Source: Spirochaetia bacterium
Lineage (GTDB): Bacteria > Spirochaetota > Spirochaetia > DSM-27196 > Salinispiraceae
DNA: 64,000 nt
Assembly: GCA_038204425.1 (NCBI GenBank)
Contig: JBBRCZ010000005.1
Location: 131,624 to 195,623 of the forward strand
Direction of reading: 5' to 3'
Position 1 is the stretch's first letter, and each line of letters starts with the position of its first letter. Made by a program: the position numbers. This document shows, piece by piece, positions 48,201 to 57,200 of this stretch.

Positions 48201-51200
48201 TTGTAGCATTAACAACCTCCGGATAGGATACAGTCATGGTACAACGCTTTCGTGCAATTGTTGCAGGCACCAAGATTTTAGATTATATACTTCTTGCCTT
48301 ATCTGCGCTGGTGTTTATAGCTTTTTCTTTGTCTATGTGGGCAGAGTCTGGCCAAGGGGCCCAAGTTCGCATCGAAACACCAAGTGGCGTCTACCTTTTT
48401 GACTTAAACCAAGACAAAACTTTTAGCCTAACTGGCTCAAGTGGTCAGAGCTCGTTTACTATCAAAAATGGGTCAGTTTCATTTATTGATTCGCCTTGCC
48501 GTGACAAGTTGTGCGTAAAGAGGGGTCTGCTGTCACAAGGTGGACAATGGAGTGCTTGTTTGCCAAACCGAATGTTTGCCAAAGTCGAAAGCTCCAAGGC
48601 CACCGATTTGCAAGGCACCGACGTCCAGAGCTATTGAGTGCCGACTAAGGAGTAAAAGTCCATGAAAAATCAAGCCGACTACGTTATAGCCGGAGGTGGT
48701 ATGGCAGGGTTAAGTCTGGCCTTGGCCTTGAGTCGCAGTAGTCTTAGTTTTGAGCAAGTGCTAATTTTTGACTTGGAAGAAAAAAAACGCAACGATCGCA
48801 CCTGGTGTTTTTGGACAGACAAAGAGAGCGACTATGATTCAATCTTAGCCCACAAGTGGTCACAACTTTCCTTTATACACCATGACTACCAAGCCACCAT
48901 AGGGCTTGGCGCTTACAGCTACAAAATGTTGCGCGGCGAAGACTTCTATGCCTATGTTCGATCCCAATTGTCGTTGGACAAACGTTTTGAGTTTCGCTAT
49001 CAAGTAGTAGACAGAATATCGGAAGACCTAACGCACGCTTGGATAGAAAGCGGTGATCAGGTTTACTACGCGCACTACATTTTTGACAGTACTTTTATTG
49101 CCAAGGATTTTAAAGTTGACCAAAGTCGCTACTTTTTTCTCAAGCAGCACTTCTATGGTTTGGTCATCAAGACTACCAAGGCTGTTTTTGACGCGCAGAC
49201 ACCGAGCTTTTTTGACTTTAGAACGGGCGTCACTGACGCTTTTAATTTTATGTACTTGCTTCCTGACAGCCCGTACCAAAGCTTGGTTGAGTTCACTTTC
49301 TTTTCCGAGGGTTTGCTGCAAAAGGAGCAGTACTTGGAAGGTCTCAAGCGCTACTTTAGGGAGGTTCTAAAGATTGGTGATGCCGACTATGAGATAGTTG
49401 AAGAAGAACAAGGCATTATTCCGATGACTGACCAAGCCTTTGATCGTTACCTTGGTAAGCGAATTTTGGCTATCGGAACCAAGGCCGGCATGGTTAAGGC
49501 TTGTACCGGTTTTGCTTTTTGGCGGACTCAAAGCGACTGCAAAAGCATAGTCGCATCATTGCAAGAGCATGGCACACCTTTTTTGATCAAAAAGCCGGCC
49601 CGGCGCTATGCGACTTTTGACGCCATGCTGCTGTGCATTCTCAAGTACCAACCCGAGCTGGGCATGAAGATTTTTGCAGTGCTGTTTAAAAAGAACCCCA
49701 TCGACAGAATTTTTCGCTTTTTGGACGAAACAGCTGGGCTTGGCGAAACGTTGAAGTTGATGGCGTCAGTGCCTTGGTGGCCATTTGTTGCAGCCTGGTT
49801 TAGACTAAAGATCCTACGTAAACACTAAACAATTTGGCAAGAAAGAAGGCATCGTGGACAGTTATCTAGAAAAAATTGCTTCACAACTGGGGCCACTTGG
49901 TTTGGTTTTGGCGGGCCTGTGGTTACTCAGTCTGATCGTGGTGCCAATTCTCACTTGGATCTGGGGAGAAAAGGGACAGCGGCGCGGCATTGAAGTTGGG
50001 GTGGTCGTGCAAGTGGTGACGGTTGCTTACCTATGTTCGCAAAATATGGCAATCACTGTTGTTGCTGGGCTGTTTGCGTTAAGCCTGATCTTTGGTTGGT
50101 CAATTGAGTTTCTCGGTTCTAGGACAGGCCTTCCATTTGGCAAGTACCACTACACCGATGTGCTAAAACCACAGTTGGCGCGCGTACCGCTCTTGATACC
50201 CTTGGCTTGGTTTATGATGCTGCCACCGTCATGGGCAACAAGTTTGGTCCTTCATCAGGCTCTGGGACTTGAGCCAAGCGTGCTTAGTTTTGCTGTCTTT
50301 AGCGCGCTATGTTTTACTGCTTGGGATCTTTACTTGGATACGCAGATGGTAAAGTGGAATTTTTGGAAGTGGGACAAAAAAGGTGCCTACTTTGGTATCC
50401 CGCTCAGCAACTATGCAGGATGGTTAGTCGCTGGTTTTGTCGTAAGTCTGCTTGCCTATCTAATCTACCCAGCGATTTTGCAGCTCAACGCACTGCCAAG
50501 TGATGCCTTGTTGGCAATCTACGTTCTGACCTGCCTGCTTGAGTTTATTGGGCAGTTCTTTTTTTGGCGTTTAAAAGGTTCGGCGCTGGTTGGATTACTG
50601 GCAATGGGCACAATCAGCGCTCTGGCGCTCAGTTACTTTGTTGTGGGGCCCATGTAAAGTCACTTTCTAAGTCGATTAGTAGCGCTCGATCAAAGTTGCC
50701 AGTTGCAACTAATTTTCTATCCTTGCCAACGAATACCGCTTGGTAGTCAGGGAACTGCTGCATAAATTTGAGCCCCTTTTCTCTTCCCAAAACAAAACAA
50801 GTTGTAGATAAGGCGTCGCAGTACATCGACGAACGATTGGAAATAATGCTGACCTGATCGACATCGCTTTGTGATGGGGCACCCGTTTTGCTGTCAAGGA
50901 TATGATGGTAGCGCTTGCCATCTTGCTCAAAATAACGCTCATAGTTACCTGAGGTGACCAGTGTCAAGTCTCGTGCTTCTAGTATGCCCATGAGACTGCC
51001 TCGGTCTTGGTCTGGTCTTTGTATTCCGATGCGCCAAGCTTGCGTACCAGTCTTGGAACCAAAAACAAATATGTTGCCACCCAAGTCAAAAATTGCTCGT
51101 TTAACGCCGGCTTCTTTGGCTATTTTAATTAGTTCGTCGGCGGCATAACCTTTAGCAATTGCCCCAAGGTCGAGGCGCATGCCAGACTTTTCTAGTTTGA

Positions 51201-54200: not shown

Positions 54201-57200
54201 CAGAAAGTCGCATGCTAGGCAAAGCAAGCGTCAAAAAGTACCTGCACCAAATCGCAGGAAAAACCGCCGTCTTGATGTGCTTGGCACTTCGTGCGGGTGC
54301 TCAAAAGAACGGAGCATCAGAACAAGCCTGTCAGCAGCTGCAACGTACAGCTTGGAATATGGGTATGGCCTTCCAAATTGTAGATGACATGCTTGATTTT
54401 TCCAATCAATCGAGTATCGGTAAGCCTGCGCAAAGTGATCTAAAAGCAGGCATTTGGACCCTGCCGGTATTGTTAGCCTTAAATAAATATAAGCAGTCGG
54501 CAGGAAATACCGAAAGCGTTGCACAACAGAAAAAGTTGGCAAAAGAACTCGAGCGTCCCAGCTTGGGCAGGAACTCCAGAAGAAAGATAGTCGACTTGGT
54601 CAAAAATTTGAGTGGATTTTCACAGGCACAGGATTGGGCCAAAAGATACACAGAACGCGCAAAACGTAGTCTTGAGGCACTAAAAGACGGACACGCGCGT
54701 GTTGTCTTGGCTAGGCTGCTAGACCATTTAGTTGCCCGTCAAGAGTGAGGCGGTATCCCACAAGTGAATGCGGGCAAACGAGCGAAAAAGGTGGCTGGCC
54801 AACCACCTGTCGGGGTTTAAGTATCTCTGACTGCTCATGCGCATTGCTGAGTTGTAGATTTTAATACTGCCATCTTCTTGTTTTACCTGACCGAGATCCG
54901 GGGCGAGCAGATTCATGTAGGCCTTAATGATGCCGCGACGATAGTCATGGTGCAAGTAGGTAATCGTACCGTCATCGTCGACAGCAATAACTAGACCGAC
55001 GTGCGTGAGTTGGTCGTTCCAGGCTTTGTCGCCGTTTCTGTCATGAGTATTGTCCCAAAAAATTAGGTCACCAATTTCTGGTAAGAAAAAGTCATGAACC
55101 AAACCTGCCTCGGTAACGATCTGATAAAATCTCTCTACACCAGTGCCGCTTGCCGACCCATACTCTCGGCGAATGTCAAGACCTGATTTAAACAGGGAGG
55201 CCATGGTTGTCCCCGAACAATCCCACGGAAAATTGACACCTTGCACCTTGAGACTTGTTAATCCAAGTAGAGCCTCACCAGCCTTCTGAATAGATTTTTG
55301 TCGGTCGGAGAGTTCTAAGTCAAGTTGATTTTGTTGTCCAAGATCCTGACCGTGTACGCAGGATATGATAGAAATAGAAAAGAGAAATAGCGAGAGTAGG
55401 CAAGCTTGTCTTGGTCTGGACTTGGGTAGAGACAAGACTTGGTCGATAATTAATAAAGCAGAGAAGTGAGGTTTTTTGATGGCAATTGTTCCTTTTAAAC
55501 GCAAACTGTTTCCCCATGTATATTTTAGTGCCACTTACTGGATTATTGGTGCCAATATTGTATTTTTTATACTAAATATCATACGGAACGACAGCATCTT
55601 TATCACCGGTCTGTCAATGCAGGGCATTTCTCAGGGTTTTGTCTGGCAACTGCTAACCTTTCATTTGAGTGATTTTGACCTATGGTCGGTGCTTTTTAAC
55701 ATGCTGGCTCTGTATTTTTTTGGTTCAACGGTGGAACGAGAAATGGGATCTTATCATTTTCTTTTGTTCTACTTTGGCATTGGTTTGGCCAACGGTTTGG
55801 CAACGCTCGGATTAAACATGGTTTTGGGTGCCAATGGTGGATTGTTTTTTGGGGCCTACGGATTGGTGAGCGCTGTCATGTTGGCTTATGCTAGCTTTTA
55901 TCCCTACAGCACTATACACATAATGGGCATAATCCCTGTTAGGGCCCCAGTTTTAATGTTGATTGTTTTGGGACTAATGATTTGGGGAACACGAGGACAA
56001 GGTTTGTTTGCTTTGCATCACCTGTTTGCCTTTATGTTTGCCTACTTAATAATGCTGCTGCGTTATCGACTCAACGTTTTTAACTACGTCTTTAAAGGTC
56101 GGAGATAAGCAGGCCTATGAGATCTTTTGCTAGAACTTTGCTAGTTCTTGCTTTGCTGGGCTTCACTGTTTGTTGTGCACAAACCTTGTCTGCGCAAGAT
56201 TTTTCTAGCTTACAAGCAGAGGTCTGGCTGGACTTTGAGCCAATGGGCGCTGACGGCCCTCTGCCTCGCCCCACAAACGAAGAAGCCTCACGGGTGTTAT
56301 TGGAAGAAGCGCGCTTGCTATTTTCTGGCATGATCTATGGTTATTCTTTTAGCTATGTACCGTCGGACACTGTGCGCCAAGTTGGCGAGCAGTTTGACCT
56401 CAAAGTTCTCGCTACTATTCCTTGGGGAGATTCCCGCCTTGAGTACCGGCAGACGCGAGCTGATGAATCCAGCGTCTACCTCAGGGTGAGATATTTTCCA
56501 AGTAAGATCGAACAAACCCGACTTAAAAATTGGAATAGCAATCGCATTCCGGACTACCAAGCCCGCGGCGAAGCATCATATTTTGATGGCCCTAAGTCCA
56601 AGCTTAAGGCGCTAGACCAAGGCATCAAAGAGGCTGTCAGAAACTTGGCGCGAGGAATTATTCGCAATAAACCTGCCGAACTACGCGGGCTGGCTGTCTT
56701 AGCAGGCATACCGCGCTTTGCCGTGATTGGTGGAAACTATGTAGCAGATGTACGCGTTTTTATTAGACTAGAAGAATCTTACAAGTATCTGACCTACTAA
56801 GCCTAGCTTGTAGCCAAAAACGTCTCGACGTTTTATATTAGAAATATGGAATGGTTAATGATAGTCCTTAATATAGTAGTGTTTCTGTTGGCCTTTGCCG
56901 GCATGGAGTTTGTGGCCTGGTTTACCCACAAATACGTGATGCACGGCTTTTTGTGGGTCTTACACAAAGACCATCACGTGCCACACAAAGGAAGATTTGA
57001 AAAGAACGATCTGTTTGTCGTTTTTTTTGCTACACCGGCTGTTGTGAGCATGGTGATAGGCATAAATACCGGCAACTGGACAGTAATTGCCGCTGGCGCA
57101 GGTATAACGCTCTACGGAATTTGTTATACGCTTTTTCATGACGTGATGTTTCACAAAAGACTCAGGTGGCTAAAGATTCCCACCAGGGCAGCCTACCTCA

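Follow-up and report, generated by a model that had tools for sequence, protein, structure and literature searches.

The genome of a Spirochaetia bacterium probably encodes an orthologous, vertically inherited version of the Listeria flavin-based extracellular electron transfer (EET) system, FLEET, which is scattered over four places and would act as an NADH overflow valve of an aerotolerant fermenter. The FLEET locus of Listeria monocytogenes consists of fmnA, dmkA, fmnB, pplA, ndh2, eetA, eetB and dmkB, and seven of the eight proteins have their top match in this genome in the genes of Table 1 (for DmkA, with an Enterococcus protein and a Listeria fragment as queries). Gene identity, orthology, fold and the failure to find a quinone ring pathway or oxidase carry this reading; from them we infer the steps of the mechanism.

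The gene cluster and its dispersed partners

The window, a stretch of 64,000 nucleotides, holds four genes of the set between positions 48236 and 54748. Profile matches place the NusG-II protein, ApbE, the membrane-tailed NDH-2 and the polyprenyl synthase exactly where the genome-wide survey's note had put them, and also bear out the partners that it had reported elsewhere, namely DmkA, the PF07456 protein of the EetB family and the PplA-like protein with two motifs. Two carotenoid genes, which that note did not mention, take up some 2 kb of the span (48662-50657); Rnf, Nqr, the FeFe hydrogenases and SdhAB likewise went unmentioned.

Table 1. Coordinates of the features (window positions, or contig and positions for genes elsewhere in the genome)
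Feature	Position	Strand	Basis or remark
EetA-family protein (NusG domain II, one N-terminal membrane anchor)	48236..48637	+	PF07009 E 4.6e-21; hydropathy
Lycopene cyclase family gene, outside Listeria set	48662..49828	+	PF05834 E 3e-48
CruF-like carotenoid hydratase gene, outside Listeria set	49854..50657	+	PF04240 E 2e-39; TIGR03460 E 1e-28, below cut-off
ApbE/FmnB flavin transferase, probable lipoprotein	50629..51732	-	PF02424 E 7e-88; lipobox read by eye
Ndh2-type NADH:quinone oxidoreductase, NDH-2 domain and C-terminal DoxX-like membrane domain	51753..53720	+	
Cys/His/Met-containing insertion in NDH domain, about 30 residues, aa 281-311	52593..52685	+	low pLDDT
Predicted periplasmic loop of Ndh2, aa 478-545, after first membrane helix	53184..53387	+	
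DmkB-type medium/long-chain polyprenyl diphosphate synthase	53717..54748	+	top genome match of Listeria DmkB, 29%, E 4e-47
UbiA/MenA gene (DmkA), sole copy	C1:443573-444490		
EetB-family protein, 417 aa	C10:89130-90383		PF07456 E 7e-32; 26% to Listeria EetB
PplA-like FMN-binding protein, two strict motifs	C6:41676-42518		PDB 2kzx E 3e-21
Candidate second flavolipoprotein	C9:17667-18818		adjoins ABC solute-binding gene

The EetA-family gene is the top blastp match of Listeria EetA in the genome (25%, E 5e-9), and NusG_II is equated with EetA in Data Set S1 of PMC9973259. The ApbE protein, whose true start, judged by sequence, is probably the ATG at 51696, matches Listeria FmnB at 41% (E 4e-83), shares with it the motifs GAIAKG, TSGxYER and HHIL, and supplies the extracytoplasmic flavin transferase of the set. 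The polyprenyl synthase is of the DmkB kind, with an Ala five residues ahead of the first DDxxD. A role as carotenoid CrtE was rejected, because a crtI-crtB-crtE-like cluster stands apart at C1:146669-150146 and the chain-length residue is that of DmkB. The lycopene cyclase insertion is shared with locus L101/G003, and the same slot holds a PplA-like gene in L098 and L102. A promoter scan gave nothing beyond chance level. The NusG-II-apbE-ndh2-dmkB cluster recurs, as the survey had counted, in 8 of 12 loci with spirochaete titles, two close loci being titled Salinispira.

The remaining genes of the set are spread so that C5, C1, C10 and C6 each hold a part, in place of the single locus of Listeria. 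DmkA is the top genome match of the EET-type queries, at 27-30%. Since blastp alone cannot tell DmkA from MenA, and the protein falls below every NCBIfam cut-off, its assignment as an EET-type DHNA prenyltransferase rests on a tree of 17 rows with two long branches. There the spirochaete prenyltransferases (100/99) are sister to the DmkA of EET loci (95/93) and separate from the MenA encoded beside menF. A DmkA orthologue occurs in 40 of the 41 genomes of the order that have Ndh2 and in 4 of the 19 others, kin that are not independent.

EetA (NusG_II) and EetB (PF07456) are both present, and neither is specific to EET. PMC9973259 describes EetB as exporting FAD and as occurring alongside Rnf too. 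EetB is found in 58 of 60 genomes of the order, against 41 with Ndh2, and at least 17 of the 19 genomes lacking Ndh2 keep it; eetB is therefore no marker of EET here. Listeria FmnA has no blastp match in the genome, so the gene set cannot be called complete. The tail of EetB weakly matches CbiQ (9 of 25 members), and no comparison bearing on FmnA reached significance (E 0.05 and 0.32), Listeria FmnA being the top non-self match among 9033 to this tail at E 0.32. The tail model has a pLDDT of 54, and no match by fold or by PDB sequence was significant. On this weak evidence, the role of FmnA is probably filled by an ECF-T-like tail fused to EetB.

The PplA-like protein matches Listeria PplA at 28% (E 2e-9) and scores 37.9 bits, against an NCBIfam PplA cut-off of 325. 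No lipobox is visible in it, and its gene is unlinked to the ndh2 cluster. With this protein as query, the gene was found in 20 of 60 genomes of the order. Among 16 hand-picked loci compared over a wider range, L092 holds pplA-dmkA-dmkB-ndh2 together, dmkA adjoins dmkB in L092-L096, and the PplA-like gene adjoins apbE in L098 and L102.

The candidate second flavolipoprotein falls into ESM Atlas clusters without names, the sole lead being FMN_bind at 0.83. The solute-binding gene beside it, which Pfam calls SBP alone, is presumably a look-alike of Fe(III)-binding proteins. This neighbourhood suggests that the periplasmic flavins might serve assimilatory iron reduction for uptake instead of energy metabolism, and a passage in PMC8238504 does link flavinylation to iron transport. 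We consider this very improbable: this neighbour accompanies the lipoprotein in none of seven homologous loci (flanks of about 1.5 kb), and genes for iron transport are missing from the core cluster.

Ndh2 and its predicted outer loop

Ndh2 aligns with Listeria Ndh2 over its full length, including the C-terminal membrane domain (35% over 660 columns, E 6e-138), and the two share the motif PQIVE; the genome thus has the membrane-tailed Ndh2 orthologue of FLEET. An AF2 model (pLDDT 89) has as its top fold match the NDH-2 of C. thermarum (E 1e-38), whereas the DoxX profile scores merely E 0.011 on the membrane domain. The operational definition of Meheust 2021 takes as the mark of EET a flavinylation-associated cluster that contains a type II NADH dehydrogenase bearing a transmembrane helix, and here an NDH-2 fold with membrane helices is encoded next to apbE. 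The survey had given the tailed Ndh2 in 24 of 26 genomes of the order; our recount is 41 of 60 other genomes (E<=1e-100), with the protein absent from all eight of one family (f9). The insertion in the NDH domain is a feature of the order's Ndh2 that the Listeria, Enterococcus and Erysipelothrix proteins lack.

The model places a helix at residues 454-477 and disorder at 495-513. The loop is acidic and lies between basic cytoplasmic segments. Within this loop lies one degenerate ApbE-like motif (aa 497-503; nt 53241-53261). The strict ApbE substrate motif is D-x-x-[S/T]-G-A-[S/T] in an extracytoplasmic segment, and the motif of this Ndh2 departs from it in having Val in place of Gly. Among 54 loops of Ndh2 homologues, a relaxed motif, its pattern chosen post hoc, is present in 36 (shuffle mean about 1) and the strict one in 4; the loop motif is also found in an Ndh2 homologue of Enterococcus gilvus, and relatives such as L006 and L102 have several repeats. 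It is possible, though we would put it at somewhat below even chances, that enzymes of the Ndh2 family are themselves ApbE substrates, with one to several covalent FMNs on an outward loop that would relay electrons from quinol to the outside. The proposed FMN sites are D-x-x-[STA]-[GSA]-A-[ST] repeats. Such flavinylation would account for the dependence of some Fe(III) reduction in E. faecalis and L. plantarum on Ndh2/Ndh3 and on EetB, which exports FAD, and for its independence of PplA. Two statements of PMC9864754 on Gram-positive EET would likewise fit: that it is not known what donates electrons directly to Fe(III), and that mutant screens brought out no gene beyond the locus.

Proposed electron export and its alternatives

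At a genome completeness of 95.6%, searches that included MqnA/D found no men/mqn ring pathway, and menB was above cut-off in none of 61 genomes of the order. Neither cytochrome bd nor COX1 (haem-copper) was found, in agreement with the survey's statement that a menaquinone ring pathway and a terminal oxidase are lacking. There is also no full-length match to MenG/UbiE in the genome, which fits a demethylated quinone. Scavenging of DHNA is a fair inference, and resembles the FLEET of Lactiplantibacillus plantarum, which requires exogenous DHNA (PMC9888254).

DmkA and DmkB would prenylate environmental DHNA to demethylmenaquinone, to which Ndh2, and also Nqr, would pass electrons from NADH. EetB with its fused ECF-T-like tail would export FAD, and ApbE would place FMN on the periplasmic PplA-like protein, RnfG/NqrC, the second lipoprotein and possibly the Ndh2 loop. 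Electrons would then pass from the quinol to the periplasmic flavoproteins and be carried out of the periplasm by small species that diffuse, be it flavins, quinones, O2 or chelated Fe(III), and not by mineral contact. An outer-membrane conduit, a c-type cytochrome or a secreted flavinylated reductase was not found in the genome; the host is a diderm and no outer-membrane step was identified, so the survey's word "extracellular" is unproven. Also counted against the export model are the PplA-like gene, unlinked, low-scoring and without a lipobox, and the lack of a significant FmnA match. Negatives from regex motifs are weak, because the regex missed FeFe hydrogenases that a Pfam search detected. 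The AOX search was uninformative, as it gave no signal in any control genome.

The genome further encodes Rnf and a five-gene Nqr cluster, with flavinylation sites in RnfG and an NqrC-like protein, and both complexes also need ApbE. Rnf and Nqr alone can account for ApbE, EetA and EetB, and PF07456, NusG_II, ApbE, RnfG and the NqrC-like protein together resemble an EetB-ECF FAD exporter with an ApbE that serves Rnf/Nqr, a system that leaves the tailed Ndh2, DmkA/B and the PplA-like protein unexplained. Electrons might not be exported at all: ApbE and EetA/EetB would just mature Rnf/Nqr, while Ndh2 and DmkA/B ran an internal quinone cycle. Such a cycle would serve NAD+ regeneration, or coupling to SdhAB, which is encoded, via an unknown anchor. 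The wide distribution of eetB, also in genomes without Ndh2, agrees with this, as does the finding that deletion of eetA in Listeria gives no EET phenotype. It is nevertheless quite unlikely: in 8 of 12 loci apbE is tightly linked to ndh2, and not to the genes of Rnf or Nqr; secreted two-motif proteins are present; and an Sdh anchor or oxidase for reoxidation of quinol was not found. SdhAB is a possible quinol sink, for which neither an SdhC nor a CCG anchor was detected; with bd and COX1 not found either, no further outlet for quinol came to light.

The chemistry of the export model could also be right with O2 as the relevant acceptor, the quinol or flavin of the envelope scavenging oxygen in microoxic habitats as a means of aerotolerance. 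Carotenoid genes lie directly behind eetA both here and in G003, from another family, and the failure to find an outer-membrane conduit would be in keeping. Salinispira pacifica, which has Nqr and no genes for lipoquinone synthesis or terminal oxidases, reduces oxygen-containing medium, a combination that also favours the export model, and its aerotolerant relatives make carotenoids. We regard O2 as an unlikely principal acceptor: cytoplasmic routes could serve, through a flavodiiron-like protein (E 3e-66, below cut-off) and two enzymes resembling CoA-disulfide reductase, and the carotenoid linkage is seen in only 1 of the 16 extended loci. What speaks against the export model as a whole is that S. 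pacifica is reported to be strictly fermentative, with S0, thiosulfate, nitrate and O2 not used for respiration; Fe(III) and DHNA do not appear in the test lists in the relevant part of its description.

Relation to known systems

Orthology to the Listeria set, as the survey proposed, stands on best matches to annotated Listeria and Enterococcus proteins, the full-length Ndh2 alignment and the prenyltransferase tree; the implied novelty does not. Data Set S1 of PMC9973259 (Rivera-Lugo 2023) already labels two Spirochaetota clusters "EET" (rows 1445-1451 and 1672), one of them pplA-eetA-eetB-apbE-ndh2-polyprenyl synthase, so the gene set is not new. The present cluster comes from the same phylum and class, and likewise has eetA, apbE divergent from ndh2 (K03885 and DoxX there) and, immediately behind ndh2, the polyprenyl synthase. 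In rows 1445-1451, pplA (three FMN_bind domains, lipoprotein), eetB and a gene for a 192-aa membrane protein lie in the cluster, whereas here they are dispersed. The S. pacifica EetB in that data set has 481 aa and 8 TM.

As in Listeria, apbE and ndh2 point away from each other, with dmkB downstream. Unlike Listeria, the spirochaete is a diderm with its genes in four places, carotenoid genes within the cluster, an EetB whose fused tail is probably an ECF-T half, a Cys/His insertion in Ndh2, a PplA-like protein that is apparently soluble and of the 2kzx-like subfamily, and an ApbE shared by Rnf and Nqr. L. plantarum and Enterococcus faecalis are monoderms with direct access to extracellular iron and measured FLEET activity, whereas the spirochaete system is known from genes alone.

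The gene set thus extends a known system inside a phylum where it was already tabulated, and offers a testable reason for the presence of Nqr and a DHNA prenyltransferase in fermentative spirochaetes described as quinone-free. A possible flavinylation of the Ndh2 loop is the more intriguing lead of the locus, and the wider value of the locus rests on it. If the loop is indeed flavinylated, this spirochaete order would be a diderm lineage whose respiration runs on borrowed quinones via a flexible multi-flavin loop.

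Gene content of the cluster and its Firmicutes counterparts

The genome-wide survey's note had described a cluster of four genes, for a NusG_II protein, ApbE, an NDH-2 and a polyprenyl synthase. All four are borne out, but the span holds six genes, with a lycopene cyclase and a CruF-like gene besides (see table). The partners said to lie elsewhere were also recovered in the genome (95.6% complete): a single UbiA/MenA gene on contig C1, a single PF07456 (EetB-family) protein of 417 aa on C10, and, on C6, a secreted FMN-binding protein of 280 aa that carries two strict flavinylation motifs and matches PDB 2kzx (E 3e-21).

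Features of the window and of loci on other contigs
Feature	Location	Strand	Remark
NusG_II (eetA)	48236-48637	+	
Lycopene cyclase	48662-49828	+	24 bases behind eetA
CruF-like	49854-50657	+	25 bases behind the cyclase
ApbE	50629-51732	-	
NDH-2	51753-53720	+	655 aa
Ndh2 insertion	52593-52685	+	aa 281-311
Polyprenyl synthase	53717-54748	+	
Membrane protein	56846-57319	+	157 aa, His boxes
Polyphosphate region	38477-42244	+	
Polyphosphate region	46632-48215	-	
Atypical ORF composition	~62600-64000		GC-rich codons, shadow frames
Carotenoid insertion behind eetA	L101:2832-4849		G003, another family
Nqr-like cluster	C1:266585-270838		F, E, D, C, B by sequence
SdhA, SdhB	C18:33577-36124		L054, within TCA cluster
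RnfG	C17:28487-29158		L142
Probable lipoprotein	C9:17667-18818		L053

The full set of 9032 ORFs that the genome yields in six frames was searched with the proteins of annotated extracellular electron transfer (EET) loci from Listeria monocytogenes and Enterococcus gilvus. The best match of FmnB was the ApbE gene (41%, E 4e-83), of Ndh2 the NDH-2 gene (35% over the full length, E 9e-143), of DmkB the polyprenyl synthase (29%), of PplA the C6 protein (28%, E 2e-9), of EetB the C10 protein (26%), of EetA the NusG_II gene (25%), and of DmkA (Enterococcus copies and a Listeria fragment) the UbiA/MenA gene (27-30%); Listeria FmnA had zero matches among these ORFs. DmkA and MenA types are not separable by blastp alone. 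In a 17-row tree with two long-branch rows, the spirochaete prenyltransferases cluster with EET-locus DmkA (95/93), apart from MenA adjoining menF.

Chain length in polyprenyl synthases follows the residue five positions before the first DDxxD motif. This is Ala in the window enzyme, as in DmkB, and Met in a second synthase; because the latter sits in a crtI-crtB cluster, the carotenoid genes can do without the window enzyme. The slot behind eetA, occupied by carotenoid genes here and in one locus of another family, holds a PplA-like gene in other relatives. The 157-aa membrane protein downstream resembles a beta-carotene hydroxylase in its His boxes, and gave no significant match in Pfam or NCBIfam. 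Directly upstream of the cluster lies a two-domain PPK2 (Pfam), with genes that we take, by sequence, to be Ppx-like and Ppk1-like. The atypical window end, at the contig end, is possibly a mobile or misassembled piece.

Distribution, and architecture of Ndh2 and EetB

Membrane-tailed Ndh2 is indeed common in the order, but the figure is 41 of 60 other genomes (E<=1e-100, a threshold chosen for this analysis) and not 24 of 26; related genomes are not independent samples in these distribution counts, and the Ndh2 searches share some records. The protein is missing from 8/8 genomes of one family (f9); among 250 genomes sampled across the phylum it turned up in 10, with one weak match. A DmkA orthologue (E<=1e-30) is present in 44/60 order genomes, 40 of these among the 41 Ndh2-positive, and EetB in 58/60; a PplA-like protein was found in 20/60 with the query from this genome, which misses the Listeria-like PplA genes of two relatives' loci (L098, L102). 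The four-gene cluster occurs in 8 of 12 spirochaete-titled loci, as had been claimed. A quick tree places this Ndh2 with its own family (98), suggesting vertical descent within the order.

Such systems have been catalogued before. In the sections available, Meheust 2021 (PMC8238504) recognises an EET system by an Ndh that bears a membrane helix and is encoded near apbE, and counts 547 genomes. The accessible part of Data Set S1 of Rivera-Lugo 2023 (PMC9973259) gives the label EET to a cluster in one Spirochaetia genome that comprises pplA, eetA, eetB, a gene for a membrane protein of 192 aa, apbE, ndh2 and a polyprenyl synthase; it has at least two Spirochaetota rows so labelled among the first 30 K03885 rows listed (60 of 247 occurrences); the main-text passages say merely 'other phyla'. 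The spirochaete system is thus already tabulated, with no discussion or assay in the literature covered, some of it as excerpts.

In the predicted Ndh2 model (pLDDT 89, 52-row alignment), the NDH-2 domain has C. thermarum NDH-2 as its best solved fold match (E 1e-38), and behind this domain come membrane helices at 454-477, 546-566, 570-586 and 592-604. All 16 extended order loci share a conserved insertion, some 30 residues long and containing Cys, His and Met, that the Ndh2 of Listeria, Enterococcus and Erysipelothrix lacks; it may act as a metal site or a redox sensor.

The two halves of EetB match two adjacent frames in most order genomes, and the tail half lies inside relatives' eetB loci in 24/24 examined. 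A Marispirochaeta gene behind eetB is annotated CbiQ in the part of Data Set S1 covered (PMC9973259). The tail itself matched CbiQ weakly in one search (E 0.05) and for 9 of 25 members in a second (best E 0.003); Listeria FmnA was its top non-self match (E 0.32, weak), and folding gave no informative model. Judged by sequence, the protein is likely an EetB-ECF-T fusion, a type already reported in the same source.

The Ndh2 loop as a candidate ApbE substrate

Behind the first Ndh2 membrane helix lies an acidic, partly disordered loop (aa 478-545) that, in the predicted model, should face the periplasm; the loops of relatives are built from Ala-rich repeats in tandem. In 54 loops (52 alignment rows, Listeria and Enterococcus), the relaxed motif D-x-x-[STA]-[GSA]-A-[ST], drawn up post hoc, with counts inflated by repeats and rows that are kin, has 55 copies in 36 loops (shuffle mean 1.07, maximum 6 in 1000) and none in the 21,797 residues that make up the NDH domains. 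As published, in its strict form, the motif occurs in 4/54 loops (0.1 after shuffling); the core [ST]GA[ST] occurs in 12/54, Listeria among them (2.0 after shuffling). The loop of the genome under study has a single copy, in which Val takes the place of the Gly; it matches neither the strict nor the relaxed pattern, which counts against a flavinylated loop.

The RnfG of this genome carries the Ala-rich variant seen in the loops where the usual flavinylation site falls (position by eye), which suggests that the lineage's ApbE accepts non-canonical sites. Together with the result that about half of flavinylation is left after a Gly-to-Ala change (PMC12052999, excerpt), this supports the relaxed loop motif as a possible flavinylation site. 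Flavinylation of Ndh2 would also fit gaps described in parts of two studies: E. faecalis requires Ndh3 and EetB, not PplA, with the direct electron donor unknown (PMC9864754), and flavin-dependent Fe(III) reduction by L. plantarum requires ndh2 and eetA/B, not pplA or dmkA/B (PMC9888254). No report of it was found in the titles and abstract openings listed or in the sections of PMC11334425 covered, a scope outside which most subscription papers fall, including Light 2018 and 2019. A further candidate for a new ApbE substrate is the probable lipoprotein on C9; it belongs to no Pfam family, occurs in 10/60 order genomes, and its C-terminal flavinylation motif is conserved in all 6 full-length homologues (7 examined).

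Quinone supply, electron sinks and the role of the gene set

The reported lack of a menaquinone ring pathway and of a terminal oxidase is borne out by the searches. E. coli MenD and MenC were unmatched, and MenB, E, F and H gave only partial matches of 21-30%; menB was above cut-off in 0/61 order genomes versus 7/14 controls. MqnA/D were not found in this genome (weak matches in 11/61 order genomes, best 4e-10), nor was a full-length MenG/UbiE seen in it. Cytochrome bd, COX1, SdhC and CCG domains were likewise not found there, with controls positive. The genome does encode Rnf, SdhAB (SdhA over the TIGR01816 cut-off), FeFe hydrogenases, a flavodiiron-like protein and a five-gene Nqr-like cluster, beside which no NqrA exceeded the cut-off in 8/8 family genomes. 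Because of these proteins, ApbE has further clients and the cell further electron sinks. A purely internal role for the gene set is improbable.

In the portions available, Salinispira pacifica (PMC4511686) is described as without quinone synthesis genes and oxidases, yet it has Nqr and reduces oxic medium. Scavenging of O2 is the least unlikely of the other roles, though still doubtful. A role in iron uptake seems very unlikely. Neither Fe(III) nor DHNA is among the compounds in the S. pacifica test lists as covered. Nothing that would take electrons across the outer membrane was found in the genome: neither a conduit nor a multihaem cytochrome, nor a secreted flavin reductase. On balance, the gene set is somewhat favored to be an NADH overflow route to diffusible acceptors, in which scavenged DHNA would be prenylated, the product would be reduced by Ndh2 and Nqr, and the reduced quinone would be reoxidised via periplasmic flavoproteins that pass electrons to those acceptors.
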